A program made the translations under genes and the position numbers. The notes under the pieces are model-generated. The model was not told the DNA's origin. It did no database searches and was given only the letters and a program-made list of their open reading frames with translations. DNA of 64,000 bases from an uncultured Fibrobacteraceae bacterium (GTDB taxonomy: Bacteria; Krumholzibacteriota; Krumholzibacteriia; LZORAL124-64-63), in the NCBI GenBank assembly GCA_964559455.1, contig CAZLHO010000005.1, positions 31,679 through 95,678 on the forward strand, given 5' to 3'. Shown here in pieces: positions 5,618-30,729 of this stretch; the first letter of the stretch is position 1, and each line of letters begins with the position of its first letter.

Positions 5618-5695
5618 CAGGATCCTGCCTCCGATTGGACGGGGAAAGTCGATCACGCCGGGGGGGCGGCCTTGCCTCCCCGCGAGACTCGACTT

Positions 5696-7636: not shown

Positions 7637-8671
7637 CTAGCCGGTGCCGGCCTTATCCCCTTCCTCCCCTCCCACACTGGCTCCACTGGAAATCCGGACC
7701 TTGAGTACGGCCGGAATCACCACGCGCACCGGTTCGTCGCAGTGACCGGTATTCAAGTCTCCAAGCAACAAGCCCACAGCCTGGCTGCCCATGCCGCAGG
7801 CATCCACGTGAACGCTTGACAGGGGCGGATTCAGATAGCCGGCGATGGCCACGTCGTCGAATCCCACGACGGCCAGGTCGTCCGGCACGCGAAAACCGGC
7901 GCGGTTCAGGGAGGCCAACAGCCCGATGGCCATGCTGTCGTTGGCGGTGAAGACCGCCGATGGCCTCGGCCGAAGGGCCATCAGCTCGGAACCGGCCTCG
8001 AAACCGGTGCTTTCGCGAAAATCCCCCTCGACGATCACCGCCCGATCGGGATCGAGGCCCGCGTCGAGGAATGCCTGACGGAAGCCCTGCAGGCGCTCCT
8101 CGGCGTCCACGTTGCCCTTGGGGCCCGAAATGAAGGCGATCTCGCGATGGCCCAGCGACAGAAGATGCTCCACCGCCTGCTTGGCGCCGCCGAAATTGTC
8201 GATTCCCAACGAGTGACAGCGCTCCACGGGGGCGCGGGGACTGAGCAGCACCACGGGGATCCTCCGCCGCACGCGCTCCACCATGTCGATGGATTCCTCG
8301 TCCGGCGCCATCATGATCAGCCCATCGATGCGGCCAAGCATGGACCGGGTGGCGGCGAGCACATCCGCGCTGCTGGAATGGGAACTGGAAAGCAGGATCT
8401 GGAAGCGGCTGAGGCGGGCCCGTCGGTCCATGCCGCGGATGACATCGGAATAGAACTCGCCGAACAGGTCCGGCAGCAGCACGCCGAATGTGCGGCTGCA
8501 GCGGGTCGCCAGGTTCTGGGCGGCGCTGTTCGGCCAGTAGTCGAAGCTCGCGGCCACCCGCACTACGCGTTCCGCAGTTTCACTGCTGACCAGGGAGTTG
8601 TTGTTGAACACCCGTGAAACCGTGGCGATCGAGACTCCCGCAGCGCGGGCCACATCGCGGATTGTTGCCAA
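7637..8671 (-). CDS. LacI-family transcriptional regulator
   Basis: HTH ATIRDVARAAGVSIATVSRV; sugar-binding domain with DNFGGAKQAVEHLLSLGHREIAFI and VVGFDD. Start inferred at TTG 8671; upstream starts are possible. Confidence 0.93.
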   Translation of the reverse strand: MATIRDVARAAGVSIATVSRVFNNNSLVSSETAERVVRVAASFDYWPNSAAQNLATRCSRTFGVLLPDLFGEFYSDVIRGMDRRARLSRFQILLSSSHSSSADVLAATRSMLGRIDGLIMMAPDEESIDMVERVRRRIPVVLLSPRAPVERCHSLGIDNFGGAKQAVEHLLSLGHREIAFISGPKGNVDAEERLQGFRQAFLDAGLDPDRAVIVEGDFRESTGFEAGSELMALRPRPSAVFTANDSMAIGLLASLNRAGFRVPDDLAVVGFDDVAIAGYLNPPLSSVHVDACGMGSQAVGLLLGDLNTGHCDEPVRVVIPAVLKVRISSGASVGGEEGDKAGTG

Positions 8672-8763
8672 GGCGGTACTTTCAGGTGGTGGTCCCGCAG
8701 CCAATCCTGCGACTCGTGGGGCCCTGCCTTCGATTCGGCGGACAGTCCTCGGTCCGATCACCA

Positions 8764-8777
8764 TGTAAACGGTTTCA
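8764..8777. promoter_or_regulatory. LacI-family operator, TGTAAACGGTTTCA
   Basis: Exact match to the TGWAANCGNTTWCA LacI-family palindrome, in the divergent region between the LacI gene and GH94. Confidence 0.75.
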
Positions 8778-8790
8778 TAAATCCAGAATC

Positions 8791-8812
8791 TTGTCAAGCG
8801 CCTCTTTGACAA
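8791..8812. promoter_or_regulatory. Inverted repeat TTGTCAA-N8-TTGACAA giving back-to-back TTGACA hexamers
   Basis: TTGACA on + at 8806-8811 and on - at 8797-8792, in an AT-rich divergent intergenic region. Matching -10 boxes are not clear. Confidence 0.45.
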
Positions 8813-8896: not shown

Positions 8897-11800
8897 ATGC
8901 CCAGGGCCGGAAACTCCGCTCCCACCCCTCCGGCAGAATGGCCGGCTGCCGTAGCGGTGCTGGCGGGCGGGCGCGACGGGCCCGCTGCGGGCTACGTGGT
9001 CCTGGCCACCAAGACCGGGACCGGCTTCTCCTCCCTGGGCGAGACGGCCCTGACCACCTGGGAAGGGCCAGGCACCGCCGGTCTGCGTTTCTTCGTCCGG
9101 GACCTCGACGGCGGAGCGTTCTGGTCGCCGGGGCGGGTCGGGGCGGCCCTGATCGAAGCGCGCGGGACTCCCGGATCCTTCACCCTGGAGCACACTGAAA
9201 ACGGCGTGCGGGTCACTGTGGAGACTTGCGTCCTGGCCGACCGCCCGGCCGAGCTGCGGCGCATCACGCTGGCCGACCTTTCGGGAACGGCCCGCCGTCT
9301 GGAGGTGACCTCGCTGGCCGAGGTCGTGCTGAACCACCCCGAAGCCCATGCCTCCCATCCCTCTTTCTCCAAGCTCTTCCTCCAGACCGAACACGTGGCA
9401 AGCGAGCGGTCCATTCTGGTCCATCGGCGCCCCCTCGACCCCAACCAGACCCACCCCACCCTGATCCACGCCCTGCTGGAACGGGGCGAAGTCGAGGTCG
9501 AGACCGACCGGGCCCGGTTCCATGGCCGCGGCCATCATCCAGAACGACCGGAGGCGCTCCTGTCGTTCGATGCGCTGTCGGGCACGACCGGAAACGTGCT
9601 GGACCCGGTCGTCAGCCTCAGGCGAAAGCTGACGATCGCCGCCGGCGGGTCGGCCACGACGACCTTCCTGCTCGGGGCTGCGGCTGACGCACCGTCGGCC
9701 AGGGCCCTGTCGGCTGCGTTGGACGAGACGCAAGCCATCGATCGAGCCTTCACGGCCGCCCGGGCGGAGGGGGCGCGCCGGTTGGCCGAACTGGGCACTT
9801 CCGCCGCAGAGCATGCCTACGCCCAGCATCTGGCGGCGGCCATCCTGCGGAGGGATCCCGGCCTGCGCGCCGAGCCCGCCGTCTTGGCCCGTGCCGGCGG
9901 CGATCCCGCCGGCCTGGCCGACCTGGGAATCGAGCCGCGTCGGCCTTTGGCGATCGTGCGATCGGACCGGGCGACCACCGAACGGATGGGGCGGATTTTC
10001 CGTTCCTGGCGATCGCTCGACCTTCCCATCCAGCTGGCCGTGCTGACCGACGACGAAGCGGTCGCCTGCCGCGAACCCGGGAGCATCCATCTGCGCCCGG
10101 GGGAGCTCACCCCGCTCCGGATGGATCTGCTCCTGGCGACCGCAGCCCTGGTGATCACCGATTCCCCGCCGGCCCTGACGGCTCTGGATCCGCCCGCGGC
10201 CGCCGCCCCGTCCCCCGGCCACTCTCCTGTTGCCGAGGAGCCGTTTGCGAAGAACCTCGGCTTCTACAACGGGTGGGGCGGCTTCAGCCCGGACGGGCGC
10301 GAGTACGTCATCCACGTCACCAGTGAAGCCGGCGGCAACCTGCGTCTGCCGCCGCGCCCCTGGATCAACGTGCTGGCAAACGACAAGCTGGGCTGCACCA
10401 TCAGCGAGACCGGCGCCGGCGCCACCTGGGGCGGAAACAGCCGTGAGCATCGACTGACGCCCTGGTTCAACGACCCGCTGCTGGACCCCCATGGCGACGC
10501 CGTCTACCTGCGCGACGAGTATTCCGGCACCTATTTCTCCTGCCTGCCCGGCCCGGCGCCGGCGGGGGGCCACTATGAGATCCGCCACGGCCACGGCTAC
10601 ACGAGGTGCCTTCGCTCCGGTGGATATCTTGCGGTCGAGACTCTCGTCTTCGTCGACCGCCGCGAACCGGTCCGCATCTCCAGGATTCGGGTGACCAACC
10701 GCAGCGATGACCCGCGCCTGCTGTCCCTGTTCTCCTTCAGCCAGCTCGTTCTCGGCGGCCTGCCGGAATACTGCAGCCGCTTCGTCGTCACCTCGCACGA
10801 TGCCGAGAGCGGGGCGCTGCTGGCCCGCAACCGCACCGCCGGTCCCTTCGCCGGGCATTGCGCCTTCGGCGCGGTGGTGGGTGACGATCATATGACGGCC
10901 GTGCACCACAGCGGAGACCGGACCGCCTTCCTGGGGCCCGGCGGCGACCCGACCGCTCCGGAAGCTCTCGGGTCGCCACATCTCGACGGTTGTTCGGGCC
11001 CCGGGCTGGACCCCTGCTTCGCCCTGCAGGCGACTCTGGCCCTGGCCCCCGGCGACACCGCCGAGACCTGGGTGCTGCTGGGACAGGAAGAGGACAGGGC
11101 GAAAGCCCTCGAACTGGTGGCCGGATTGGGGGTCCCGGGAGCCTGCGAGGCGGCCTGGCGCGCCACCCGGGATTCCTGGCGCCGAGACCTCGACGGCATC
11201 CAGGTGCGGACCCCGTCCGCATCCCTCGATCTGATGGTCAACGGGTGGTTGGGCTATCAGACCCTGGCCTGCCGCATGCAGGGACGTTCGGCGCTGTACC
11301 AATCGGGAGGCGCCTTCGGCTTCCGCGACCAACTGCAGGATTCGCTTGCCCTGATCGCCTTGCGGCCCGAGCTGACCCGCCGCCAGATCCTGCTGCACGC
11401 CGCCCACCAGTTCGTCGAGGGCGACGTCCTGCACTGGTGGCATCCTCCCTCGGGCCGAGGCATCCGTACTCGTTTCGTCGACGACCTTCTCTGGCTGCCC
11501 CTGGCCACGGTGGAATACATCGGCGCCACCGGCGACCGGGGAATCCTGTCGGAACAGGCCTCCTACCTGACGGCGCCCGCCCTCGAGCCGGGCCAGGACG
11601 AGGTCTTCCTGCAGCCGGAACCCGCCGGGGAGTCGGCCGACCTGTACGACCATTGCTGTCGCGCCCTGGACCGCTCCCTGGCCCGCGGAGCCCACGGGTT
11701 GCCTCTTTTCGGAACAGGCGACTGGAACGACGGCATGAACCGCGTCGGCCGCGAGGGCCGGGGCGAGAGCGTATGGATGGGGTTCTTCCTCGTGAAGATC

Positions 11801-12742
11801 ATCGACGGCTTCCTGCCGCTTTGCCGGGTCCGCGGCGACCAGGAGCGCGAAGCCCGCTACGGACGATTCCGCGACGAGCTGGTCCGGACGCTGAACGACA
11901 CGGGCTGGGATGGCGACTGGTATCGCCGCGGCTATTACGACGACGGTTCCCCGTTGGGCTCCTGGGAGAACAAGGAATGCGCCATCGACGCCCTGGCCCA
12001 GGCCTGGTCGGTGCTTTCGGGCGTGGCCCCGCCGTTCCGCGCCCTACAGGCGATGGATGCCGTCGAGGAGCATCTCATCGACGATGATCAACGGCTGATC
12101 CGATTGTTGACGCCGCCCTTCATCGATACGGACCACGACCCCGGCTACATCAAGGGCTACGTGGCCGGCGTCCGGGAGAACGGCGGGCAATACACCCATG
12201 CCGCGCTGTGGGTGGTGCGCGCCATGGCCGCCCTGGGCCGGCGCAATCGCGCCGCCCCGCTTCTGGACCTGATCAACCCGATCTGCCATGCGGCCGACCC
12301 GCAGATGGTGGCGCGCTACCAGGTGGAGCCCTACGTGGTGGCCGCCGACGTCTACGGCGCGCCGCCCCACGTGGGGCGCGGCGGCTGGACGTGGTACACC
12401 GGGTCATCGGGATGGATGCTGCGGGTGGCGCTGGAGTCCGTCCTGGGCCTGAGCTCCGAAGGGGAAACGCTGGTGATGGCGCCCTGCGTACCCGACGATT
12501 GGCCCCGATACTCGATCATCTGGCGGGTGCCTCCCCGGGGAGGCGACAATCCCGACGACCCGACGACCTATGAGATCCAGGTCGCCAACCCGGAACTCTG
12601 CTCGGAGGCCGTGCTGGCGGTCACCTGCGACGACCGCCCCTGTCCGCCCGTCGGCGGCGTCGCCCGCGTTCCCCTTTCGCGCGACGGCCGCACCCACCGG
12701 ATCACCATCACCCTGGGCCCGCGGCCCGAGACCGGTCCATGA
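8897..12742 (+). CDS. GH94 glycoside phosphorylase of the Cgs/NdvB C-terminal type; probable beta-1,2-oligoglucan phosphorylase
   Basis: QSGGAFGFRDQLQD, HWWH, catalytic GDWNDGMN, ENGGQYTH, GRGGWTWYTGS; two N-terminal beta-sandwich domains; no signal peptide. Substrate inferred from GH144 context. Confidence 0.88.
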   Translation: MPRAGNSAPTPPAEWPAAVAVLAGGRDGPAAGYVVLATKTGTGFSSLGETALTTWEGPGTAGLRFFVRDLDGGAFWSPGRVGAALIEARGTPGSFTLEHTENGVRVTVETCVLADRPAELRRITLADLSGTARRLEVTSLAEVVLNHPEAHASHPSFSKLFLQTEHVASERSILVHRRPLDPNQTHPTLIHALLERGEVEVETDRARFHGRGHHPERPEALLSFDALSGTTGNVLDPVVSLRRKLTIAAGGSATTTFLLGAAADAPSARALSAALDETQAIDRAFTAARAEGARRLAELGTSAAEHAYAQHLAAAILRRDPGLRAEPAVLARAGGDPAGLADLGIEPRRPLAIVRSDRATTERMGRIFRSWRSLDLPIQLAVLTDDEAVACREPGSIHLRPGELTPLRMDLLLATAALVITDSPPALTALDPPAAAAPSPGHSPVAEEPFAKNLGFYNGWGGFSPDGREYVIHVTSEAGGNLRLPPRPWINVLANDKLGCTISETGAGATWGGNSREHRLTPWFNDPLLDPHGDAVYLRDEYSGTYFSCLPGPAPAGGHYEIRHGHGYTRCLRSGGYLAVETLVFVDRREPVRISRIRVTNRSDDPRLLSLFSFSQLVLGGLPEYCSRFVVTSHDAESGALLARNRTAGPFAGHCAFGAVVGDDHMTAVHHSGDRTAFLGPGGDPTAPEALGSPHLDGCSGPGLDPCFALQATLALAPGDTAETWVLLGQEEDRAKALELVAGLGVPGACEAAWRATRDSWRRDLDGIQVRTPSASLDLMVNGWLGYQTLACRMQGRSALYQSGGAFGFRDQLQDSLALIALRPELTRRQILLHAAHQFVEGDVLHWWHPPSGRGIRTRFVDDLLWLPLATVEYIGATGDRGILSEQASYLTAPALEPGQDEVFLQPEPAGESADLYDHCCRALDRSLARGAHGLPLFGTGDWNDGMNRVGREGRGESVWMGFFLVKIIDGFLPLCRVRGDQEREARYGRFRDELVRTLNDTGWDGDWYRRGYYDDGSPLGSWENKECAIDALAQAWSVLSGVAPPFRALQAMDAVEEHLIDDDQRLIRLLTPPFIDTDHDPGYIKGYVAGVRENGGQYTHAALWVVRAMAALGRRNRAAPLLDLINPICHAADPQMVARYQVEPYVVAADVYGAPPHVGRGGWTWYTGSSGWMLRVALESVLGLSSEGETLVMAPCVPDDWPRYSIIWRVPPRGGDNPDDPTTYEIQVANPELCSEAVLAVTCDDRPCPPVGGVARVPLSRDGRTHRITITLGPRPETGP

Positions 12743-14103
12743 CCGCTTTCCCCCGGAATTTCCTGTGGGGCGCCGCCACCTCCGCCCACCAGATCGAGGG
12801 CTCCCCCCTGGCCGACGGCGCGGGTCCGAGCAACTGGCACCTGTTCACTCACCTGCCGGGAAGAACCGCCAACGGCGATACCGCCGACGTCGCCTGCGAT
12901 CACTACCGGCGGTGGCCCGAGGACATCGGGATCATGAGCGAGCTGGGCTTGCAGGCCTACCGTTTCAGCCTGTCCTGGAGCCGCATCCTCCCGCACGGGA
13001 CCGGCGAGGTGAACGCCCGGGGACTGGACTTCTACGAGCGCCTGGTCGACGCGTTGCTGGCGGCGGGGATCCAGCCGATGCCCACCCTCTTCCATTGGGA
13101 CCTGCCCGCGGCCCTGGACGAGCGCGGCGGCTGGGTCAATCCCGACAGCGCCGGCTGGTTCGCCGACTACGCCGAGGTTGTGTTCCGGCGCCTGGGCGAC
13201 CGCGTCCGGCGCTGGACCACCTTGAACGAACCCTGGGTGATCGTCGACGCGGGATACGTTCACGGCGTCCATCCCCCGGGACGCATCGACCTGACCGAGG
13301 CCGCCCGGGCCGCCCACAACCTGCTGCGCGCCCACGGGCAGGCCGTCCGCTGCTTCCGGGCCAACGGAAGCGGCGAGATCGGCATCGTCGTCAACCTGGA
13401 GCCCAAGGATCCTGCGAGCGGCACCGAGGCCGACAGGGCGGCGGCCGGACGCGCCGATGCGTACATGAACCGGCAGTTCCTCGACCCTCTGCTGCGGGGC
13501 CGCTACCCCGAGGAACTGGCGGAGATCTACGGCTGCGACCTGTCCGATTCCCCGCCCGCGGACTTTACGCTGATCGGCGAGCCCGTCGATTTCCTGGGTC
13601 TCAACTACTACACGCGATCGGTGAACCGGCACGACCCCGAGGCGGCCCCCGTTTTCGCCTCGCCGGTGAGGCGACCGGGCGCCGAGTACACGGAGATGGG
13701 CTGGGAGGTGCATCCGGAGAGCCTGGTCCGGGCGCTCGTGTGGTTGAAGGAGCGCTACGGCGACCGGCCCATCTACATCACCGAAAACGGCGGCGCCTTC
13801 AAGGACCCCGAGCCGGATGCACGCGGGCGCGTGTCCGATCCCCTGCGCCGGGGATACATCAGGGACCACCTGCTGGCCGTGCGCGAAGCGATGGCCCTCG
13901 GCGTGGACGTGCGCGGCTACTTCGCCTGGTCCCTGCTGGACAATTTCGAATGGGCCTGCGGCTACGACAAGCGGTTCGGCCTCGTGCGGGTGGACCCGGC
14001 GACCCGTGATCGGACGATCAAGGACAGCGGTTGGTTCTACCGGGACGTGATCGCCGGTCGAGGCGCGGTGCTCGACCGGGATGAAGCCGCACCCGGGCGA
14101 TAA
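12739..14103 (+). CDS. GH1 beta-glucosidase (cytoplasmic)
   Basis: FLWGAATSAHQIEG, YRFSLSWSRI, TLNEP (acid/base), ITENG (nucleophile), WSLLDNFEW; ATGA overlap with GH94. Confidence 0.96.
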   Translation: MTAFPRNFLWGAATSAHQIEGSPLADGAGPSNWHLFTHLPGRTANGDTADVACDHYRRWPEDIGIMSELGLQAYRFSLSWSRILPHGTGEVNARGLDFYERLVDALLAAGIQPMPTLFHWDLPAALDERGGWVNPDSAGWFADYAEVVFRRLGDRVRRWTTLNEPWVIVDAGYVHGVHPPGRIDLTEAARAAHNLLRAHGQAVRCFRANGSGEIGIVVNLEPKDPASGTEADRAAAGRADAYMNRQFLDPLLRGRYPEELAEIYGCDLSDSPPADFTLIGEPVDFLGLNYYTRSVNRHDPEAAPVFASPVRRPGAEYTEMGWEVHPESLVRALVWLKERYGDRPIYITENGGAFKDPEPDARGRVSDPLRRGYIRDHLLAVREAMALGVDVRGYFAWSLLDNFEWACGYDKRFGLVRVDPATRDRTIKDSGWFYRDVIAGRGAVLDRDEAAPGR

Positions 14104-14140
14104 AGGATGCGCGGGACCGGACCGGGGGTTCGACAGCCCG

Positions 14141-17100
14141 CTAGGGCTTCCAGCGGACTTCCACGGGCACCGTCCCCACGACCACCCGGCCCGCGGCGTC
14201 CTGGCGCGCGGGCGCCTCGTCGACGGTCGCGGTCAGGCCGGCCGCCGGAGGGTCCAGCAGCAGCCCCCCCGAGGGGAGGGCGAACCCCTCGTCGATCTTC
14301 ATCACGACATCGTTCCCGTCGCGGAACAACCGGTAGCCCAGCCTGCCGTAGGGAGTGGGCAAGCGGTCGACGACCAGCCCGCCGTCCTCGAGCCATGCCG
14401 CAGGCACCCCGGCCGCCAGCACCAGCGCCGCGGACCCCTCGTCGCCATCCCGCCGTTCATACGCGAACATGTCGAGCAGGCTGCGCATGTAGTCCGACCC
14501 CACCCACGTGTGGGGCATGTCGCCGATGAAGCGGGCGGTGGTCGTGTCGCCGACGACCACCTCGGCCCACTGGCGCCAGCCGAGCGGCGTGCGATGATCC
14601 AGGAAGAACGCCAGCAGCTCCTGGACGCGATCACGCCATCCCAGACGCACGAAGGCGCCGATCGTCCGGATCTCGTAGGGCGTGAAGTCCTTCCAGGGCT
14701 CCCCGGCGGCGCGCGCGCTGAAGAAATCCCAATAGCGCGCGAAGGTCCGCTCCAGGGCGCCCGCCGGCAGGATGTCCTCCGCCGCGGCCGGATCCAGGGC
14801 GATGGTCGTCGAGGTCGCGTCGAAGTCGCCCAGGTCGGCGCAGCCGGGAACGTAGTCGATGCCGTGCCTTTCCATCGCCGCGGCCACCGAAGCGCCGAGG
14901 TCCCGGGAGAACCGGTCGCGCAGGGCGCTCAGGCGTTCGCGCTCGACCACCAGGCCGTCCGGGCCGCCGACCGCCAGTTCCGCGGCCAGCCAGGCCGCGT
15001 CCTTCAGGCCGCGCAGGGCGAAGAAGTCGTCCCAATAGGAATGCATGGGCTTGGCCGAATAGCCCTCGTGGCTGATCGAAGGGGGCAGGATGCCGTAGTA
15101 TTCCCGCTTGTCGGCGGTCCGGTACTCCCCGGTCCTCCGCTCGTCCAGCAGCGATTCCAGGTACCGTACGCCGGCCAGCACCCGCGGCCACATGACCTCG
15201 AGCAGGGCCCGGTCGCCGGTAAAGCGGTAGTGTTCGGCCACCAGGAAGATGAATTCCCCCGTGGAATCGTGCTCGGGCACCGGATCGGCCCCGCGCCGAT
15301 CGACGACGCAGGGGATCTTTCCGTTGTCGTACTGGTGGGGCGCATACCATTCCAGGAAATCGCGCACCGCATCGGCATGCCCGAGGCGCAGCAGCGCCGC
15401 TCCGGTGAGGGAGCCGTCGCGGATCCACGAGCGCGCATACGACCGGGCCCCGGGCTGGATGGCCACCCCTGCGCGGTTGACCAGGACCCAGCCGAGCTGG
15501 GCTTTGAGCGTGGCGATGGCGTCTTGCGCGGCCGGCGGGCCCTCGATCACCACCCGGTCGCGGGCGGCCCGCCAGGCCGCCCCGGCCCGGGCCGTCGCGT
15601 CGACCCAATCGATGTCCTCCGGAAGCGGCGAGGCCTCGTGCAACGGCAGCAGCACCTGCACTCCCGCACCTTCGCCGGGCTCCAGGCCCAGCCGATAAGC
15701 CACTGCGGCGGAGGCGGCCCCGAACGGGTCGTCGACCGCCTGCGCGCCCGGCAGCCGGCCCGCCCTCAGATGGTCGGCCACCACGTCCCCGCCGGCGAAG
15801 GTGACGGCTCCGAAACCGTCGGGCTCGCAAAGCAGGCCCACCCGCGGCCGCCCGTCCACCAGGAGCGTGCGGCCGTCGCGCGCAACGCTCCCCACGCGCG
15901 CGGTGCCTCCGCGGACGTTCAGGAACTGCACCGGCGGGTTCACCTGGAAGGGCCGCAGGGCCAGGAACAAGGTGACCGAGTCGGCCGCCGCGCCCCGGTT
16001 CTCCACCACGTACCGCGCCAGCAGCGACGAGCGCTCCGGCAGGCCCGTTCCCAGGGCGGAGATCCGCAGGCGCCACGGTCCGCTTTCCCACGTCACCCAA
16101 GGGAGGGGCAGGTCGTCGTCCGACAGGCCCCGGGTCGCGGTCACGTCGTCCCAGGTGAGCAACCGCCCGTCGGTCCACAGGAAGGGCTCCAGCGAGAACT
16201 CGCCCGGCCCCGCTTCCAGGGCCCCGTCCGCGCCCAGCAGCCCCTCGCGCGAATCGCGGTCCGCCCCGACGACCGTCCAGGCGGTGGGCTCGCCCAGGAA
16301 GCCCCGCGGGTACACCCCCCTTGGAGCCTCCTTCGCGATGTTCATGAAGAACGTCTCGCGCGTGGTGGACCAGTCCAGGGGCCGCAGCACGAGTTCAGCG
16401 ACCGCCGGCGGCGGTGCGCCCTCATCCGGCAGCGGGCGCAGCCGCAGCCATTCCGATTCGGTTTCGGGCAGGAAAAGGGGGTCCCGCCCCCCGTTGCCTC
16501 CGGTGACGACCGACTGCGTTCGCCACGTGCGCCCGTCATCCGAGGTTTCGACCAGGTAGTCGGCGACATGCCGCCCGTCCGCCCAGACCACGGTCAAGCC
16601 GCCGTACTCGCGTGGCCGCCCGAAGTGCAGATTCAGCTCCGGTGCGGCGTCGTCGGGTTCGGGAGACCACCAGGTCGCCGTGTCCCCGTCGAGCACGGCG
16701 GCGGCCGGATGAGCCGTCGGCGCCGAACTCGCCGTGGCCACCGGCACGGGCGGCGGGCCCGCCGCGACCGGAAGCGGCACCAGTTCCAGGTCGTCGATCC
16801 ATAGCGTCCCGGCGCCGCCGCTGCCCGCGGTGACGGCGAATTCGATCGCCGCGACGTGCCGGATCTCGCCGCCGCCCGCAGGGCCCCAGGCGAACTCGAT
16901 CTGGCGCTTCTTGATCCTGACGCTCTGCCAGTCCTCGGGCCACGCGACATCCCGCAGAACGTGCCACCAGACGTCTTCTCCGCCGGCGTCGACCAGTTTG
17001 AATTCCAGGTGGTTGACCGGGGCCTCTCCCCGGAGATCGAAACGGAAGGCGTAGTTCCCGGGCAGATCGAGATCCGTCTCCAGGCGGGCGATGGCGTAGC

Positions 17101-17326
17101 CGCCGCCGGTGAATCGGAAATCCAGCCGCATGGCCCGGCCCCGCCCGTCGTCCCTGTCTTCCCTGGAGATGTCCAGGGCGACTCCGTCGGCGGGATGGGC
17201 CGACCAGGCCTGATCCCCTTCGAAATCGTCGATCACCAGGCATTCCTGGCTGCAAGCGGGCGCCGGCAGGAAGACCGCCAGGAGGAGCGCCAGCGCCAGG
17301 CCCCGAGGCTTGTTCCGCGGCTTCAT
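14141..17326 (-). CDS. Exported modular glycoside hydrolase-like protein: CIA30/CBM11-like domain, F5/8 discoidin domain, six-hairpin (alpha/alpha)6 domain
   Basis: Signal MKPRNKPRGLALALLL; ATG 17326 overlaps the permease stop. IDDFE...LWIDDLEL; discoidin ATASS...VLDGDTATWWS...YLVETSDDGRTW; catalytic-type SYARSWIRDGS, EHDSTGEF, SHEGY, HSYWDD. Confidence 0.75.
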   Translation of the reverse strand: MKPRNKPRGLALALLLAVFLPAPACSQECLVIDDFEGDQAWSAHPADGVALDISREDRDDGRGRAMRLDFRFTGGGYAIARLETDLDLPGNYAFRFDLRGEAPVNHLEFKLVDAGGEDVWWHVLRDVAWPEDWQSVRIKKRQIEFAWGPAGGGEIRHVAAIEFAVTAGSGGAGTLWIDDLELVPLPVAAGPPPVPVATASSAPTAHPAAAVLDGDTATWWSPEPDDAAPELNLHFGRPREYGGLTVVWADGRHVADYLVETSDDGRTWRTQSVVTGGNGGRDPLFLPETESEWLRLRPLPDEGAPPPAVAELVLRPLDWSTTRETFFMNIAKEAPRGVYPRGFLGEPTAWTVVGADRDSREGLLGADGALEAGPGEFSLEPFLWTDGRLLTWDDVTATRGLSDDDLPLPWVTWESGPWRLRISALGTGLPERSSLLARYVVENRGAAADSVTLFLALRPFQVNPPVQFLNVRGGTARVGSVARDGRTLLVDGRPRVGLLCEPDGFGAVTFAGGDVVADHLRAGRLPGAQAVDDPFGAASAAVAYRLGLEPGEGAGVQVLLPLHEASPLPEDIDWVDATARAGAAWRAARDRVVIEGPPAAQDAIATLKAQLGWVLVNRAGVAIQPGARSYARSWIRDGSLTGAALLRLGHADAVRDFLEWYAPHQYDNGKIPCVVDRRGADPVPEHDSTGEFIFLVAEHYRFTGDRALLEVMWPRVLAGVRYLESLLDERRTGEYRTADKREYYGILPPSISHEGYSAKPMHSYWDDFFALRGLKDAAWLAAELAVGGPDGLVVERERLSALRDRFSRDLGASVAAAMERHGIDYVPGCADLGDFDATSTTIALDPAAAEDILPAGALERTFARYWDFFSARAAGEPWKDFTPYEIRTIGAFVRLGWRDRVQELLAFFLDHRTPLGWRQWAEVVVGDTTTARFIGDMPHTWVGSDYMRSLLDMFAYERRDGDEGSAALVLAAGVPAAWLEDGGLVVDRLPTPYGRLGYRLFRDGNDVVMKIDEGFALPSGGLLLDPPAAGLTATVDEAPARQDAAGRVVVGTVPVEVRWKP

Positions 17327-18147
17327 TCCTTCACGCCGCCGGCCATGATCCCTCCGACGAAGGTGCGCTGGAAGACGAGAAAGACGATCAGGGCCGGGAG
17401 AATCGTCACGACCGATCCGGCCATCATCAGCTCGGTGTCCTGCACGTGCTCGCCCACCATGTTGGCCAGGGCCACCGGCAGGGTGTACATCGCGCTGTCC
17501 GAAAGAATGATCAACGGCCACATGAAATCGTTCCACGCGCTCAGGAAGGTGAACGCCGCCAAGGTGACCACGATGGGCTTGATGATGGGCAGGGCGACCA
17601 GGCGGAAGATCATGAACTCGCCCGCGCCGTCGATCCGCGCGGCGTCCAGCAGGTCGTCCGGCACGCTGAGGGCATACTGTCGGATGAGGAAGATGCCGAA
17701 GACGCTGGCCATGTACGGCACGATCACCCCCGCGTACGTGTTCACCAACCCCATCTCTCTCATCATCAGGAAAAGCGGCAGCATCCCGACCTGGGCCGGG
17801 ACCACCATCGCGCTCGCCAGGTAGCGGAACAGCTTCTCGCGGCCGGCGAAGGGAAGCTTGGCGAAGGCATAGCCGGCGAGGGAGTTGACCAGGACCGAGA
17901 TGACCGTGGCCAGGACGGTCACGACGGCGCTGTTGGCGAAATTCCGCACCATGTCGAGCCTGGTGACCAGGGCGGCGTAGTTCTCCAGCGTCGGGTGCCG
18001 CGGCACCAGGCGGGGAGGCAGGTTGTTCGCCTCGCCGGGGGACATGAACGACGCGGCCACCATCCAGAACAGGGGCATCAGCGTGATCGCGGCCCCGACG
18101 ATCAATCCGCCGTGCAGCAGGATGGATCTGTTGTTTCGTTCCTTCAC
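17323..18147 (-). CDS. Carbohydrate ABC transporter permease (MalG-like)
   Basis: LAGYAFAKLPFAGR, EAA-type loop LLDAARIDGAGEF, AWNDFMWPLII. Confidence 0.95.
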   Translation of the reverse strand: MKERNNRSILLHGGLIVGAAITLMPLFWMVAASFMSPGEANNLPPRLVPRHPTLENYAALVTRLDMVRNFANSAVVTVLATVISVLVNSLAGYAFAKLPFAGREKLFRYLASAMVVPAQVGMLPLFLMMREMGLVNTYAGVIVPYMASVFGIFLIRQYALSVPDDLLDAARIDGAGEFMIFRLVALPIIKPIVVTLAAFTFLSAWNDFMWPLIILSDSAMYTLPVALANMVGEHVQDTELMMAGSVVTILPALIVFLVFQRTFVGGIMAGGVKE

Positions 18148-18157
18148 GACGACTTCC

Positions 18158-19048
18158 TCATTGCCGCGCCTTCTGCAGTCTCAATTGGATCAGGGCGCCG
18201 GCCAGGGTGATCACCAGCAGCACGCCCGCCACCGCCGCCGCCATGCCCATGCGCCACCACCGGAAACCCTCCTCGTACATGTACAGGACCAGACTCCTGG
18301 TGGCTCCCAGCGGGCCTCCCTGGGTCATGACGTAGGGCTCGGCGAAGAGCTGGAAGAACCCGATCATCGTGGTCACGCTGACGAAGAGGAAGGTCGGCCC
18401 CAGCCCGGGCAGCGTGATGTGCAGGAAGCGCCGGGCGGGACCGGCGCCGTCGATCTTGGCGGCCTCGTACAGGTTCTCCGGAATTGTCTGCATCCCCGCC
18501 ACGAAGATCAGCATGTTGTAGCCGAAGTTCTTCCACACCGCGAGCAGGATGATCGCCGGCATGGCCCACTGCGGATCGCCCAGCCAGTCGATGGGCTCGA
18601 TCCCCACGAGACCCAGGAGAAAATTCAATAATCCGTATTTGGGGTGGTACAGATAGCGCCAGACGATGGCGACCGAAACCAGGGTCGTCACCACCGGAGC
18701 GAAATAGACCGTCCGGAAGAAGCCCCGCAACCTCACGAGCTTCGCATTGAGCAGAAGAGCCGCCCCGAGGGAAACCCCGATCGACAGGGGTCCGCCGATG
18801 AAGACGAACTTCATGGTGTTCCAGACCGCCGTCCAGAAGGTCTCGTCATGCAGGAGACGCTGGTAGTTCTCCAGGCCGACGAAGCGGGCGACGCTCAGCG
18901 AACCGATGGCGTAGAGGTCGAAATCCGTCAGGCTCATCAGCAAGCCCGCGCCCACCGGCACCAGGAAGAACAGCACGAGCAGGATGATCGCCGGGGCCAG
19001 GAACATCCAGGCCGCCCGCGTGCGCCTGAGCGTGAGGGGATTACTCAT
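18158..19048 (-). CDS. Carbohydrate ABC transporter permease (MalF-like)
   Basis: FVGLENY, FRTVYFAPVV, EAA loop LYEAAKIDGAG; start placed at ATG 19048 (MSNPL). Confidence 0.95.
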   Translation of the reverse strand: MSNPLTLRRTRAAWMFLAPAIILLVLFFLVPVGAGLLMSLTDFDLYAIGSLSVARFVGLENYQRLLHDETFWTAVWNTMKFVFIGGPLSIGVSLGAALLLNAKLVRLRGFFRTVYFAPVVTTLVSVAIVWRYLYHPKYGLLNFLLGLVGIEPIDWLGDPQWAMPAIILLAVWKNFGYNMLIFVAGMQTIPENLYEAAKIDGAGPARRFLHITLPGLGPTFLFVSVTTMIGFFQLFAEPYVMTQGGPLGATRSLVLYMYEEGFRWWRMGMAAAVAGVLLVITLAGALIQLRLQKARQ

Positions 19049-20396
19049 GGCCCGCCCCCTCTTGCCTGTTCCGTGCCTTGTCCCGATCGAGCAGCCAGCG
19101 CCGTTTGGCCAGAAGGCGCTCCACATCGGCGTCCAGTTTCGCCATGGCCTCCGCGGGGCTTTCGGCCCCCCTGATCGCCGCCTCGGTCCGCTCCCAGATC
19201 CTCGTGGCGATCTGCTCCCATTCCGGAATCTTCGGGGTCGGAACGACGTTCCCCAACTGGTCCCAGAACGCCCGCACCTCGGGATCGTCGGCCAGCACCG
19301 GTGCGGACCAGGCGGCCTTGTGGGCCGGCAGGTCCCCCGTCAGCTGGAAGAAGCGGACCTGCTGCTCGGGCCGGCTGAGGAACTCGATCAGTCGCCAGGC
19401 CGCCTGCTTGCGGGCCGAGGACTCGAAGAGGACCAGACTCGATCCTCCGGCCAGCGACACGCCCGGGCCGCCGTCCCCCGGCGCCGGCATGGGCGCCGTC
19501 GACCAGTCATCCTGCATCTCCTCGGGAAGTCGGCGGCGGCATTCCCCGATATTCCACGGGCCGGTGATGAACATGGCGAAGGTGCCGCGCTCGAATTCCT
19601 GGTAGAGGTTCGCGACCTGGTTGTTGCTCACCGACGGCGCCAGGCCGTCGGCGAAAAGACCCAGGTAGAAGTCGAGGGCTCGTCCGAAGGCGGGGCCCGA
19701 AAAATCACCGCGCGTATCGCCGTCCACCAGCAGGGACGAGCCCGCCTGCAGGCCGAGGATCACCGGTTGCGTCCACTCGTTGATGGGCAGAAGCATGCCG
19801 AACTTATCCGGTCCCCGGGCGCTGAGGGCTTCCAGGGACCGGCGCCATTGCTGCCATGTCCTGGGCGGTTCGGCGAACCCGGCTTCGGCCAGGAGATCCG
19901 TGCGGTAGAACAGCAGCCGCGTGTCGACGTACCAGGGAACACCGTAGAGATCCCCGCCGAGGACGTTCGTGTCCCAGATACCGGGAAAATGATCCTCCGG
20001 GTTCACCAGTTCGGATGCCGCCACCAGGCCCCCGAGTCCGGCCAGCGCACCCAGGGCCTGGAATTCAGGCACCCAGGTGTTGCCCATCTGGGCCAGGTCC
20101 GGGGTGGCCCGGCCCACATGGGCCGTCAGCAGCTTCTCGTGGGCGGCCGTCCAGGGAATCTGCTGGACCCGGACCCGCACATCGGGATTCTGCGCCTCGA
20201 ATTCCCTCACCAGGGGCTGCACCATCTCCCCCTCGCGGCCCATGACCCAGAAATCCAGGACGGGAATCCCGTCGGCGTCCTGCCCGCAGCCGCACCCTCC
20301 GGCGACGATCAGGCCCGCCCAGAGCAGGAATCCCGGACCACGCCACACGGTCGGTTTCCGATGCAGGGAGGCGGCGGGTCCGGAACCATCAGTCAT
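19041..20396 (-). CDS. Sugar ABC transporter substrate-binding lipoprotein
   Basis: Lipobox IVAGGC; HEKLLTA, YGVPWYVDTRLLFYRTDLL, AMFITGPW, SLAGGSSL. Confidence 0.93.
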   Translation of the reverse strand: MTDGSGPAASLHRKPTVWRGPGFLLWAGLIVAGGCGCGQDADGIPVLDFWVMGREGEMVQPLVREFEAQNPDVRVRVQQIPWTAAHEKLLTAHVGRATPDLAQMGNTWVPEFQALGALAGLGGLVAASELVNPEDHFPGIWDTNVLGGDLYGVPWYVDTRLLFYRTDLLAEAGFAEPPRTWQQWRRSLEALSARGPDKFGMLLPINEWTQPVILGLQAGSSLLVDGDTRGDFSGPAFGRALDFYLGLFADGLAPSVSNNQVANLYQEFERGTFAMFITGPWNIGECRRRLPEEMQDDWSTAPMPAPGDGGPGVSLAGGSSLVLFESSARKQAAWRLIEFLSRPEQQVRFFQLTGDLPAHKAAWSAPVLADDPEVRAFWDQLGNVVPTPKIPEWEQIATRIWERTEAAIRGAESPAEAMAKLDADVERLLAKRRWLLDRDKARNRQEGAGHE

Positions 20397-21915
20397 CGGG
20401 CCGGTCCCCGGAAGAAAGCCAGCCGCCCGAGAAGCCGGCGGCCTTCAGGCCCCTGATGACATGGGGATTCCGGCGCATGGTCCGCCAGACCAGGCCGGAA
20501 CGGTAGTTCTCGATCATGGCGAGGATGGGCCCCTGATCGATGCCCAGGTAATCCGTGTCGTACCAGCCCCGCCCGGGCACCACCCGGCCGTGCTGGACGG
20601 GGATGTCCCGGGTGAAGGTAGGGTTCAGGGCGTCAAAGAAACCGTATTCGCCGAAGAGGTGTTCCCCGTGATCCTCCTTCATCGCCATCAAGACCGGCAG
20701 GGCGATTTCCGGAGCGAAGGGCAGGGATCCGCCGGCGGCCGAGGGACAGATGGTGCCGTCGTCGTTGACGTAATTGAACGAGGCGCCGCGCGCCCAGTAG
20801 GTGACGAAGTCGTGCGCCACCCCGTCGATCTCGACCGTCTGGTTCACCGGACCGTCGCAGGCGGTCAGGCCCCAGAGGCGTGGGCCGTAGCCGGTGAAGC
20901 CGCCCGGGTTTTCCTGGGCGTAATCGTATTGGGAAAGGACCGCCCGGCGGGAATTCTCGAAATAATCGAGATCATTCTCCCTCATGACCTCGTCGCGGAT
21001 ACCCCGCATGTCGTACCACACCTGGGTGTACTGATGCCCGAACAGGGGAGGGAAGCCGAGGTGGCGCCGCCCATGGAAATCTCCCCAGACGTAACCGTCG
21101 GTCCACGCCTCCCAGGCGTCGTATTCCACCGGATGGGTCGGCGACCCCAGGGCCATCAGGTACAGCAACGTGGCCTCGTTGTAGCCTCGCCAGTCGTAGG
21201 ACAGGAACCCCTGCTCGGGTTTCCAGCCGTGACTGATGGTGGGAGCCCTGACCGAGGCCCACTGCCAATCCACCCTCAGATAGAGGGAGTCGGCGAGGGC
21301 CCGGATGCGGGCTTCGTCGGCCTCGGGCCGGTCGAAGTAGGTCTGGCAGAAGAGGGCGCCGGCGAGCAGCAGGGCGGTGTCGATGGTGGAAAGCTCGACG
21401 TCCCGGAACCGGGCGCCGGTATCGGGATCCAGGAAATGGTAATAGAAGCCCCGGTAGCCTGTAGACCCGGTGCGGGCCGTATCCTGGCGCGCCGACCAGA
21501 AAAATTCCAAGGTGCGCAGGGTGCGGTCCACGGCTGCTTCCCTGGTGACATAACCTCTTTCCACTCCAATAGGATAGGCCGTCAGGGCAAAACCCGTGGC
21601 CGCCACGCTGGCAAAGGATCTGGTGGGCCATCGGTCGGGCGCCAGACCAGTATGGGGGTTGCAAAGATCCCAAAAATATCGGAAGGTACGCACTTGCAGG
21701 CTGTCGATGAAAGCGGTTTCATCTGAAGACAGTGAAATATCCGACTTTGCCGAGCCATCCGAGTCCCCGCAGCCGGAAACGCCGGACATGGCCGCAAGGC
21801 ACAGGGTGGACATCACCAGAGCCAGGGCCACGGGGGCCAGGGAAAAAACAGCGGGTCGGGCTGCGGGAATCGCACGGCCTGAGCTGGAGTCGTCGGTCGG
21901 CCGGAAAAGATTCAT
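20389..21915 (-). CDS. GH144 endo-beta-1,2-glucanase (Glycoamylase Pfam family), lipoprotein
   Basis: SVAATGF, GFYYHFLD, ELSTIDTALL, RVDW, HGWKPE, YNEA, LFGHQY, WGLTACDGP, YLGIDQGPI; lipobox VSGC; GGAGG before ATG 21915. Confidence 0.92.
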   Translation of the reverse strand: MNLFRPTDDSSSGRAIPAARPAVFSLAPVALALVMSTLCLAAMSGVSGCGDSDGSAKSDISLSSDETAFIDSLQVRTFRYFWDLCNPHTGLAPDRWPTRSFASVAATGFALTAYPIGVERGYVTREAAVDRTLRTLEFFWSARQDTARTGSTGYRGFYYHFLDPDTGARFRDVELSTIDTALLLAGALFCQTYFDRPEADEARIRALADSLYLRVDWQWASVRAPTISHGWKPEQGFLSYDWRGYNEATLLYLMALGSPTHPVEYDAWEAWTDGYVWGDFHGRRHLGFPPLFGHQYTQVWYDMRGIRDEVMRENDLDYFENSRRAVLSQYDYAQENPGGFTGYGPRLWGLTACDGPVNQTVEIDGVAHDFVTYWARGASFNYVNDDGTICPSAAGGSLPFAPEIALPVLMAMKEDHGEHLFGEYGFFDALNPTFTRDIPVQHGRVVPGRGWYDTDYLGIDQGPILAMIENYRSGLVWRTMRRNPHVIRGLKAAGFSGGWLSSGDRPDD

Positions 21916-22038: not shown

Positions 22039-23034
22039 ATGGGTTTCAGGCCAAAATCCTGGCTCAGATATCGGGTGATCCTGTACGCCCTGGTCGTCGT
22101 GGGAGTGTTCCTCTACCGGAACCACTTCGACTGGAGACGGCTCGTCCCCGAGGGGCGGGACAGGCAGGGCAGCCCGCGCACCCTGGTCCTGGCCGGGCGG
22201 GACCTCGCCCCAGGTCTGTTCGACGTCCTGGGGGATCATTACGGCAGCGACTATCCCGATCTGGTCATCAGCACCCGGGCAGGCGGCACGAATCAGGCCC
22301 TGGAGGATCTGATCAACCGGCGGGCTGACGCCGCCTTCCTGTCCCGGCCGCCGACCCGGGCCGAACAGGAGCTGTTTCGACAGGCGGACGGGGACACCGC
22401 CATCGTGGTGCCGGTGGGGGTCGGCGCCATCGTGGTTCTCGCCGGGGCCGGGACCCTGCCGGGGAACCGGCCGCCCGGCCAACCGGCGGCGATGACGGTG
22501 GAGCAACTCGGCCGGCTGATGGCCGGCGACATGCAGGGACAGTGCGACCGGTTCTACGCCGCGGACCCCAATCTCGGCTTCTGGGCCGCCGCGGCGAGGC
22601 TGATGGGCCGTGATCCCGCCCCCGTGGACACGGGCACGGTCGTCTATCTGGCCGATGACGGACAGATCGTTCTCGCGGTCGGCAACGACCCCCGGGCCAT
22701 GGGCATGATCGCGTCCTTCGATCTGCCGGCTTCCCCCCTGCGGAATCTGCCCGCCCCCGGGGATTCCACGGCCGGCCCGGTGATCGTGGCGATGGCCGAC
22801 TCTTCGAGTGCCCGGGAAGTCGCACCGGCCTATGATACCGTGGCGGCCGGCGCCTATCCCCTGCACCTTTCGCTGTTCGTGGCCTGCCGGGCCGGCGGCG
22901 GCATCCAGGGCGGGAAATTCGTGACCCATCTGGCCGGCGGACGCGGGCAGAGACAGATTGAACGTGCCGGCTGCATCCCGGCCAAAAAGGTTCCCCACGA
23001 GGTGCTCCTGACCAACCGGCCATTGGGCGAATGA
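22039..23034 (+). CDS. PstS-like (PBP_like_2) periplasmic binding protein with N-terminal membrane anchor
   Basis: TM segment VILYALVVVGVFLY; GGTNQALEDLINRRADAAFLSRP; GAYPLHLSLFV; first gene of the TonB operon. Confidence 0.75.
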   Translation: MGFRPKSWLRYRVILYALVVVGVFLYRNHFDWRRLVPEGRDRQGSPRTLVLAGRDLAPGLFDVLGDHYGSDYPDLVISTRAGGTNQALEDLINRRADAAFLSRPPTRAEQELFRQADGDTAIVVPVGVGAIVVLAGAGTLPGNRPPGQPAAMTVEQLGRLMAGDMQGQCDRFYAADPNLGFWAAAARLMGRDPAPVDTGTVVYLADDGQIVLAVGNDPRAMGMIASFDLPASPLRNLPAPGDSTAGPVIVAMADSSSAREVAPAYDTVAAGAYPLHLSLFVACRAGGGIQGGKFVTHLAGGRGQRQIERAGCIPAKKVPHEVLLTNRPLGE

Positions 23035-23100
23035 CGGCGGGGAACGGACTTCGGCAACCATCAGCAGGGAGATGGAGACGCACCGATGGCAGGAGGGCTC

Positions 23101-24948: not shown

Positions 24949-24950
24949 CG

Positions 24951-25667: not shown

Positions 25668-25670
25668 GCC

Positions 25671-26138: not shown

Positions 26139-26150
26139 AGGAGTCCCGTT

Positions 26151-30531: not shown

Positions 30532-30729
30532 GATGACAGCCCCCCCGCCAACGTAGACACGGCGGGGCGGTCGTGTCAATCGGGCCGGCGGGGCCTGGCG
30601 GGAAGGCGCGCGCGAACCGGCACAGGCCGGAGGTCCGATCCGACAAGGGCGACAGGCACGACGGGAATCTGCTATCATCAACCGGCGCGATACCCGGCCT
30701 CGGCACCCGAACGCGAAGGAATCCCCGAC

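Follow-up and report, generated by a model that had tools for sequence, protein, structure and literature searches.

A probable LacI-repressed β-1,2-glucan uptake and catabolism locus in a member of Candidatus Krumholzibacteriota, and its relatives in several phyla

The locus and the proposed pathway

The stretch of DNA analysed here (64,000 nucleotides of contig CAZLHO010000005.1, ~68% G+C; hereafter the window) carries, between positions 2975 and 21927, ten protein genes that we propose, with a probability of about 0.75, to form a LacI-repressed locus for the uptake and catabolism of β-1,2-glucan in a member of Candidatus Krumholzibacteriota. They encode a TonB-dependent receptor, a secreted tandem-CBM9 protein of 627 amino acids (aa), a LacI-family repressor, a GH94 phosphorylase, a GH1 β-glucosidase, a 1061-aa lipoprotein, two permeases and a binding protein of an ATP-binding cassette (ABC) transporter, and a GH144 lipoprotein. 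Many Proteobacteria hold β-1,2-glucans in the periplasm and secrete them; these polymers serve Brucella, Agrobacterium and Xanthomonas as factors of virulence or symbiosis, and their natural turnover is known in fragments only.

A sequence-only reading of positions 8897-21915, which run exactly from the start of GH94 to the start of GH144 and leave the LacI and receptor genes outside on the left, had described a near-complete β-1,2-glucan utilisation pathway of a probable candidate-phylum bacterium, made up of a GH144 lipoprotein, a solute-binding protein, permeases, an orphan hydrolase, GH94 and GH1 clustered with a TonB-dependent receptor and LacI. All of these are present as supported frames. 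Long spurious open reading frames (ORFs) are abundant in the window, and the genes were sorted out by their G+C content at third codon positions (GC3); the locus genes, identified with Pfam and NCBIfam, are the best-supported reading frames, with GC3 values of 0.83-0.92. The pathway itself is supported by homology to characterised proteins, by synteny across phyla and by a shared LacI operator, and "near-complete" is a fair description, the one missing part being the ABC ATPase, which is absent from the 64 kb. The phylum-level guess also holds, in that those locus proteins which were examined are most similar to proteins from metagenome-assembled genomes (MAGs) of Candidatus Krumholzibacteriia (56-79% identity over the three loci that represent it, L001, L003 and L034 of the related loci described below), and next to those of Eisenbacteria and Gemmatimonadota.

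Together, these genes are an ordinary diderm "CUT locus", a term defined by the association of a TonB-dependent receptor, carbohydrate-active enzymes, an inner-membrane transporter and a sugar regulator (Blanvillain et al. 2007, PMC1790865); all four gene classes lie within 19 kb. One minus-strand operon is transcribed in the order GH144, binding protein, permease 1, permease 2 and 1061-aa protein. The GH94 and GH1 genes are convergent with it on the plus strand, and LacI, the 627-aa protein and the receptor form one minus-strand operon that is divergent from GH94. Signal peptides and lipoboxes were judged by eye on the N-terminal sequences: GH144 (VSGC) and the binding protein have a lipobox, the 1061-aa protein has a signal peptide with a lipobox-like end, the 627-aa protein has a plain signal peptide, and GH94 and GH1 have no signal.

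We propose the following pathway, with which this distribution of signals between the GH144, binding, 1061-aa and 627-aa proteins on the one hand, and GH94 and GH1 on the other hand, is consistent. The tandem-CBM9 protein, anchored at the surface through a type IX secretion system (T9SS) tail, would catch the glucan, and the TonB-dependent receptor would carry the glucan or its fragments across the outer membrane. The GH144 lipoprotein, as its strong homology suggests, would then cleave the polymer into sophoro-oligosaccharides, and the 1061-aa six-hairpin protein encoded in the same operon may perform a second extracytoplasmic step beyond GH144, namely the opening or trimming of an odd linkage, or exo-trimming. 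The oligosaccharides would be imported by the Lin1841-like binding protein and the two permeases, energised by an ATPase encoded elsewhere. In the cytoplasm, a GH94 enzyme of the type found in cyclic β-1,2-glucan synthetase (Cgs) would release glucose 1-phosphate units, and GH1 would split the leftover sophorose and short oligomers to glucose. LacI would bind the operator TGNAANCGNTTNCA in the LacI/GH94 control region and in the 5' end of GH144, and would presumably be released by a sophoro-oligosaccharide.

Evidence for β-1,2-glucan as the substrate

The assignment of β-1,2-glucan as the substrate of the locus is well supported by the homologies of its proteins, as follows. First, the GH144 lipoprotein (20389-21915, minus strand; 508 aa, with the VSGC lipobox at Cys49), the first gene product of its operon, matches XcSGL (8xul, XCC2207 of Xanthomonas campestris) with 533 bits (E = 5.9e-159), PF10091 with 266 bits (cut-off 27) and CpSGL with E = 1.3e-48. 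XcSGL hydrolyses β-1,2-glucan, and the SGL clan is defined by the residues E239, F286 and Y367 in XcSGL numbering (PMC12102758), all of which are kept in the window protein as E247 (GYNE), F292 (FGHQY) and Y373, according to its alignment to XcSGL. This strong homology argues that the enzyme cuts the polymer to sophoro-oligosaccharides. Second, the solute-binding lipoprotein (19041-20396, minus strand; Pfam SBP_bac_1), a CUT1-type protein of the subfamily of Lin1841 and the Xanthomonas "MalE" (3uor), scores 437 bits against 3uor and 238 against Lin1841 of Listeria innocua (5ysb), compared with 126 for the next unrelated binder of solved structure. The ligands of Lin1841 are Sop3-5 (cited in PMC12369401), and 3uor is probably XAC2310, which is encoded beside the XcSGL orthologue according to a published gene table (PMC1790865). 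Third, the cytoplasmic GH1 enzyme (12739-14103, plus strand; 454 aa; Pfam Glyco_hydro_1, 511 bits) passes the curated β-glucosidase model TIGR03356 with 575.6 bits (cut-off 478.5), and a GH1 β-1,2-glucosidase is known from a comparable β-1,2-glucan cluster of Streptomyces (2025; PMC12369401). The GH94 enzyme is treated with its lineage below.

A shared operator and a module conserved across phyla

The LacI-family repressor (7637-8812, minus strand; 8812 being the ORF limit and the probable start an ATG at 8764 or a TTG at 8704) shows the Pfam LacI helix-turn-helix and Peripla_BP_3 domains. Operator 1 (8764-8777) precedes the GH94 ATG by 120 bp, in the control region that the divergent LacI and GH94 genes share; its sequence, TGTAAACGGTTTCA, is a typical LacI-family half-palindrome pair. 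Operator 2, TGAAAGCGGTTTCA (21708-21721), lies ~200 bp into the GH144 coding sequence. These are the only two copies of the pattern TGNAANCGNTTNCA in the 64-kb window, and both fall within the locus.

For comparison, genomes were searched with the 1061-aa family, each species being represented by one genome; this brought out at least 598 confirmed loci, 80 of which (1.23 Mb in total; labelled L and a number) were fetched. TGNAANCGNTTNCA occurs in them at 53 sites, when ~0.3 are expected from base composition; 37 of the 80 loci carry it, and for 50 of the 53 sites a locus gene starts no more than 400 bp away. LacI is the nearest locus gene for 27 sites (25 at 4-110 bp upstream, 2 more than 400 bp away), while 9 sites lie in GH144 at +192 to +222, 8 upstream of GH1, 5 at GH94 and 1 where the 1061-aa gene begins; another site is more than 400 bp from any locus gene. 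The intragenic GH144 operator is found at 5534 in L001, 5465 in L003, 5552 in L009, 5329 in L013, 3598 in L015, 5471 in L017, 5580 in L023, 2852 in L034 and 5537 in L048, and it may serve as a roadblock or looping site. This distribution of one operator connects the cytoplasmic enzymes with the uptake operon by evidence other than homology.

The order GH144, binding protein, permease, permease, 1061-aa protein is found in most of the 80 loci, in several phyla. Where the flank was long enough for counting, the 1061-aa gene comes after permease 2 in 63/69 loci, and permease 1, the binding protein and GH144 are present in 54/60, 46/51 and 39/47, respectively. In the window, these permeases are the UgpE/MalG-like permease 2 (17323-18147) and the UgpA/MalF-like permease 1 (18158-19048; ORF to 19126, likely start M27), both on the minus strand and both recognised by Pfam (BPD_transp_1) and NCBIfam. 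Of the 28 loci whose flanks reach 9 kb or more on each side, 21 have LacI, 21 have GH94 and 19 have GH1. The carriers include Krumholzibacteriota, Eisenbacteria, Gemmatimonadota, Acidobacteriota and Proteobacteria. A single strand of the cultured Duganella sp. 1411 carries, in this order, LacI, an Oar-like receptor, GH144, binding protein, permease, permease, 1061-aa homologue, GH1, GH94 and a MalK ATPase. Since gene order recurs across phyla and a shared operator motif links the genes, their clustering is not due to chance.

Some Eisenbacteria loci carry, upstream of LacI, a second, divergent GH144 paralogue of 45-47% identity (at 2528 in L011, 2844 in L012, 2750 in L024 and 2747 in L028), and in the same loci the GH94, at 36-37% identity, belongs to another lineage.

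The 1061-aa protein and its possible roles

The 1061-aa extracytoplasmic protein (14141-17326, minus strand) is encoded by the last gene of the GH144 operon. Its true start is MKPRNKPRG..., the ATG overlapping the stop codon of permease 2, and its signal peptide ends in the lipobox-like ...PAPAC. Pfam, searched to E = 10, recognises in it only an F5/8 type C (CBM32) domain. A word-indexed search gave 1,928 members of the family. With the C-terminal 502 residues alone, the matches numbered 1,877 clusters at 50% identity, including 701 at E ≤ 1e-30.

The AlphaFold2 (AF2) model of the protein, with a predicted local distance difference test score (pLDDT) of 87.6 and a predicted template-modelling score (pTM) of 0.86, comprises a β-sandwich (30-184), the CBM32 (196-315), a β-supersandwich (350-561), an (α/α)6 barrel (574-954) and a further β-sandwich (955-1060), and confidently predicts a six-hairpin glycosidase fold. 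Foldseek ranks the GH15 dextran dextrinase 9ju0 first (E = 2.6e-14), followed by GH94 phosphorylases and Cgs at ~1e-13, and also by GH116 enzymes, the GH15 glucodextranase 1ug9, the amylo-α-1,6-glucosidase 7vma and GH65 enzymes; with identities of 9-14% and target template-modelling (TM) scores of at most 0.56, these matches indicate a fold class and no close structure.

No known family could be assigned. Pfam (E to 10), NCBIfam and profile searching of the PDB gave CBM32 or sub-threshold GH15/rhamnosidase matches only, and a 30-sequence profile of the family, compared with all PDB sequences, found no solved relative of the catalytic part. Membership in GH15 was considered and is not supported by family models: the GH15 model TIGR01577 reaches 30 bits against a cut-off of 820.7, there is no Pfam GH15 match even at E = 10, and the profile search returned no solved GH15, so that the resemblance is limited to the fold and a single motif. 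The TIGR01577 match (E = 2e-7, in the WIRDG region) is the sole sequence-family signal in the catalytic part. When the family was aligned to GH94 with hhalign (56% probability, E = 1e-4, 497 columns), W634-I-R636-D637 fell on the F-R-D motif of GH94, its DWND loop had no counterpart, and Y884/E885 stood in place of the phosphate-binding His. The residues W634-x-R636-D637, E754, W765-D766-D767 and E885 are invariant in the family. With E754, W765-D766-D767 and E885 invariant, the protein resembles a glycosidase that uses water and probably inverts, more than it does a phosphorylase, a reading which also fits its extracytoplasmic location.

What such a glycosidase would cut can be argued in two ways. 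A possible role, which we put forward tentatively, is that of a GH15-like inverting hydrolase for the single α-1,6 linkage of α-1,6-cyclised β-1,2-glucans, or for the limit oligosaccharide that carries it; the locus would then digest Xanthomonas- and Ralstonia-type cyclic glucans fully, besides plain β-1,2-glucan. In favour of this role, the best Foldseek match is the GH15 enzyme 9ju0, with 1ug9 and 7vma among the others, the only sequence-family signal of the catalytic part is that of a GH15 model, and E885 sits at the position of the GH94 phosphate-binding His. The motifs W634-x-R636-D637 and W765-D766-D767 also resemble the "WxRD" and "WEE" motifs of GH15, a likeness of sequence motifs and not of superposed structures. 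Moreover, CpSGL and a β-glucosidase acting on α-1,6-cyclised β-1,2-glucans are reported, in a preprint of 2026, to leave, besides glucose, a "non-degradable glucopentaose" (bioRxiv 10.1101/2025.04.21.649730), from which it follows that an enzyme for the α-1,6 junction is lacking in the known set; and, judging by gene order, the family probably includes XCC2203, encoded beside XcSGL in a producer of such a glucan. Against it, the β-specific GH94 family fits the fold about equally well, hhalign linking it to the 1061-aa family, and the 1061-aa family is common in phyla for which there is no report of these cyclic glucans.

The protein may instead be a β-1,2-specific hydrolase, a water-using relative of GH94 that trims sophoro-oligosaccharides from their ends or attacks the polymer, in place of the periplasmic GH3 β-glucosidase found in other β-1,2-glucan clusters; we regard this as possible to about the same degree. 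The hhalign result, with RD aligned on RD and the phosphate-binding His replaced by Y884/E885, and the Foldseek matches to GH94 and Cgs would fit such an enzyme, as would the fact that no GH3 is seen among the annotated locus genes of the window or of Duganella. However, the hhalign probability is only 56%, the catalytic DWND loop of GH94 has no counterpart, and the products of GH144 already suit the binding protein, so that the need for an extra step is unclear. A further point in favour of this role comes from the Competibacteraceae, in which the 1061-aa homologue is directly followed by a Cgs-type GH94 (L067 9749-16642, L080 485-7415 and L065 9728-18377), with no GH144, binding protein or permeases nearby and with unrelated neighbours (aminotransferase, methyltransferase, sensor kinase) that gave no clue to function besides the pairing itself. 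This pairing keeps a β-1,2-directed role of the 1061-aa protein equally open with the α-1,6 role.

More generally, we propose, again tentatively, that the 1061-aa protein founds an undescribed glycoside hydrolase (GH) family, including XCC2203, which opens or removes the α-1,6 linkage of cyclised β-1,2-glucans or another linkage that GH144 cannot cut. If this is true, the family would explain the full consumption, in soils and sediments, of cyclic glucans related to virulence and osmoprotection.

The outer-membrane step

The TonB-dependent receptor (2975-5656, minus strand) is the last gene product of the LacI operon; its ORF of 893 aa has a likely start at M24 (position 5587), and Pfam finds in it the CarboxypepD_reg, Plug and TonB_dep_Rec β-barrel domains. 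A Bacteroidetes-type outer-membrane uptake, as the sequence-only reading had it, is not what we found, since the receptor fails the SusC model TIGR04056 (69 bits, cut-off 368) and there is no SusD, the neighbouring gene encoding a tandem CBM9-like β-sandwich protein; we therefore rejected a SusC/SusD pair of the Bacteroidetes polysaccharide utilisation locus type.

This neighbour, the secreted 627-aa protein (5696-7579, minus strand), has two CBM9-like domains (~29-267 and 285-519) and a putative T9SS-type C-terminal sorting domain. Its Pfam match to CBM9_1 is weak; its AF2 model (pLDDT 80) shows the two CBM9-like sandwiches and a small C-terminal β-sandwich (538-625), and its best Foldseek matches are the CBM9 modules 7nwn and 1i82 (target TM 0.67-0.68). 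Among its homologues, which carry PF18962/PF13860, the names in use are "T9SS type A sorting domain" and "sugar-binding". The window protein itself gives no match to the Pfam or NCBIfam models of T9SS sorting domains; its tail, ...VTLEIYDVRG...GVYLYRL...GKAVLVK, fits the usual T9SS pattern. We infer that it is a surface glucan binder which feeds the receptor, analogous in role, and not in fold, to SusD or to surface glycan-binding proteins. The order LacI, 627-aa protein, receptor also occurs in L005, L007, L010 and L016.

Tails resembling that of the 627-aa protein (FlgD_ig / T9SS-like) were also noticed in a 1187-aa protein (27520-31083, minus strand) and in a papain-family peptidase (60137-62059, minus strand), and the organism seems to export many proteins through a T9SS-like route.

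Divergent from GH144 lies a Ton energising operon (22039-27454, plus strand; PBP-like, tetratricopeptide-repeat, ExbB, ExbD, ExbD and TonB genes, by Pfam). All or most of its genes stand beside GH144 in ~10 loci (L001, L005, L006, L009, L013, L015, L017, L018, L023 and L048), from Krumholzibacteriia, Eisenbacteria, Gemmatimonas and MAGs labelled "Fibrobacter". It is a conserved neighbour that may power the receptor, and its membership in the locus is uncertain.

In Proteobacteria, an Oar-like receptor (2707-5559 in L075; XCC2208) has CarboxypepD_reg and OMP_b-brl_4 domains and no canonical plug. Because it is not orthologous to the window receptor, the outer-membrane step was replaced at least once.

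The outer-membrane genes also bear on the source of the glucan. It has to be considered that the locus might recycle the cell's own periplasmic β-1,2-glucans, for example after an osmotic shift, and not a foreign glucan: three of its products (GH144, the binding protein and the 1061-aa protein) have their place outside the cytoplasm, and a homologous locus exists in Xanthomonas, which makes a periplasmic cyclic β-1,2-glucan. We consider this unlikely, in view of the TonB-dependent receptor and the putatively surface-sorted CBM9 protein that are co-transcribed with LacI and point to external uptake, and of the absence of glucan synthase genes (Cgs, OpgH) among the window genes examined. The scavenging of glucans from lysed Gram-negative cells, as the sequence-only reading had suggested, is plausible.

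The lineage of the GH94 phosphorylase

The cytoplasmic GH94 phosphorylase (8897-12742, plus strand; 1281 aa, with the Pfam supersandwich and catalytic domains) overlaps the GH1 reading frame by 4 bases, the two genes being translationally coupled. It matches PF06165 with 379 bits and PF17167 with 370 bits and, among solved structures, Cgs (8rf9) with 790 bits, residues 33-347 corresponding to Cgs 1549-1874 and residues 430-1208 to Cgs 2001-2772. The alignment covers the sub-domains GP1 to GP3, and the Rossmann-like insert of Cgs (1847-2012) is cut to ~80 residues (348-429). The GDWNDG motif is aligned to the same motif in Cgs, and its D942 is invariant in 28 homologues, as are R810, H1101 and T1168, which are candidates for the phosphate-binding Arg, His and Thr of cellobiose phosphorylases. 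In Cgs, D2528 has been named as catalytic, and the phosphorylase domain phosphorolyses β-1,2-glucan chains (PMC11842490). From this domain and from the genetic context, the GH94 enzyme is predicted to be specific for β-1,2 linkages. Its resemblance to Cgs extends over its whole length, including GP1; it differs in being free-standing and soluble, without glycosyltransferase, cyclase or membrane parts, and in its presumably catabolic role, whereas the Cgs domain controls chain length.

The proposal that GH94 is a 1,2-β-oligoglucan phosphorylase (SOGP; EC 2.4.1.333) of the Listeria/Lachnoclostridium type did not survive: LpSOGP (5h3z), the only solved free-standing enzyme of this kind, is matched with only 22 bits (E = 1.9e-4, over 350 residues), which is weaker than the ~235 bits obtained with cellobiose and chitobiose phosphorylases. 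GH94 may work like SOGP though it lies outside the SOGP clade. The homologues listed bear the database names "glycosyl transferase", "cellobiose phosphorylase" and "cyclic β-1,2-glucan synthetase", none of them pointing to a tested activity.

That the locus serves another β-glucan (cellodextrin, laminarin or chitin oligomers), β-1,2 being an over-reading of family names, could be argued from the match of GH94 to cellobiose and chitobiose phosphorylases, from the label "cellobiose phosphorylase" that metagenome pipelines give to its homologues and from the fact that GH1 enzymes are often cellobiases, but is very improbable, given that the GH144 activities reported in the cited literature are all on β-1,2-glucan and the window GH144 is close to XcSGL, that the binding protein is nearest to Lin1841-type proteins, that the score of GH94 to Cgs is three times that to any cellobiose phosphorylase, and that one operator is common to all the genes.

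Points that weigh against the proposed pathway

Several observations speak against the proposal of a LacI-repressed β-1,2-glucan locus, or at least against parts of it. First, the functions of the enzymes, binding protein and repressor of this lineage are predicted from homology, and the roles of the 1061-aa and 627-aa proteins from fold and position only. Second, GH94 is not orthologous to any characterised free-standing oligoglucan phosphorylase; as the Cgs domain works on an enzyme-tethered chain, the chain-length preference of GH94, and even its linkage, could differ. Third, the ligand of the receptor is putative, and a non-orthologous Oar-like receptor takes its place in Proteobacteria. 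Fourth, operator 2 lies within a coding sequence, and its conservation could partly reflect the encoded peptide (ETAF). Fifth, no MalK-like gene for the ABC ATPase occurs anywhere in the 64-kb window; such a gene is present in 23 of the 80 related loci. Overall, the substrate and the general flow that had been read from the sequence stand, and the GH94 lineage and the framing of the locus as a hybrid do not.

Comparison with known systems

The description of the locus as a hybrid of Bacteroidetes-type uptake with Firmicutes-type import and phosphorolysis was abandoned in view of the same layout in Xanthomonas (XCC2203-2209), in Duganella and in at least 598 species genomes, and of the scheme drawn earlier for Ignavibacterium album. 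In X. campestris, XCC2203-XCC2209 is listed as a "putative partial CUT locus", made up of XCC2203 (hypothetical), lacG, lacF, malE, XCC2207, the Oar-like receptor XCC2208 and the LacI XCC2209, with orthologues in X. citri (XAC2307-2313), X. oryzae, Xylella and Sphingopyxis (Blanvillain et al. 2007, PMC1790865, Table S3). The core and its order are the same as ours (LacI, receptor, GH144, binding protein, two permeases and a large "hypothetical protein" at the position of the 1061-aa protein), and this order was seen directly in Lysobacterales and Duganella loci. XCC2203 is thus probably the orthologue of the 1061-aa protein, as judged from gene order only. The systems differ in that the proteobacterial receptor is of the non-orthologous Oar-like type and has no CBM9/T9SS partner, in that the LacI, CBM9 protein and receptor of the window form a separate divergent operon, and in that the Xanthomonas table has neither GH94 nor GH1, both of which are present in the window locus. 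On XCC2203-2209 and the orthologue tags, our literature search found nothing beyond the 2007 table.

The general scheme is not new, having been proposed earlier for I. album, whose SGL cluster IALB_1177-1187 was drawn with a TonB transporter, GH144, an ABC importer and a Cgs-type GH94 (Kobayashi et al. 2022, PMC8861115), that is to say the same architecture as the one called hybrid. Unlike the window locus, that cluster includes a second GH144 gene, a GH3 and the GH35 glucosyltransferase IaSGT; the window has GH1, the 1061-aa protein and the CBM9 protein instead. With L. innocua lin1839-1841 (SOGP, a GH3 β-glucosidase and Lin1841), the window locus shares the logic of ABC import of sophoro-oligosaccharides followed by phosphorolysis and β-glucosidase action, as well as a binding protein homologous to Lin1841 (238 bits). 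The Listeria system, however, has a GH94 of another lineage (LpSOGP, 22 bits), a GH3 in place of GH1 and no GH144, and belongs to a monoderm without an outer-membrane step. The cluster SGR_2422-2427 of Streptomyces griseus (PMC12369401) similarly ends with a GH1 β-glucosidase and has a Lin1841-like importer; it differs by its GH193 glucanase and by the lack of a phosphorylase and of an outer membrane. SGR_2426, the GH1 β-1,2-glucosidase, is no particularly close relative of the window GH1, whose 60 best matches of solved structure do not include it.

Our literature search found nothing that links Krumholzibacteriota with GH144, and no description of this module with its spread across phyla, of its operator, of the CBM9/T9SS receptor partner or of the 1061-aa family.

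Other genes of the window

Elsewhere in the window, we noticed two adjoining leucine-rich-repeat proteins of 567 and 624 aa with EndoS-type leucine-rich-repeat matches (33213-36792, minus strand), a DUF4143 AAA ATPase beside an rve_3 integrase/transposase, possibly a mobile element (42191-44660), a 663-aa GT4 glycosyltransferase resembling sucrose synthase and sucrose-phosphate synthase (47905-49896, minus strand), and an S8 peptidase with carboxypeptidase-regulatory-like domains (56239-59064, plus strand).

Significance

The locus belongs to one conserved, co-regulated module that is common to at least 598 species-level genomes. The parts that stand out are the free-standing Cgs-type GH94, the putative tandem-CBM9 surface partner of the receptor and the six-hairpin family of ~1,900 sequence clusters. 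Cultured carriers such as Duganella sp. 1411 and Xanthomonas make the module directly testable, and the value of the locus lies in a well-defined enzyme family that awaits characterisation and in the cultured hosts that carry it.

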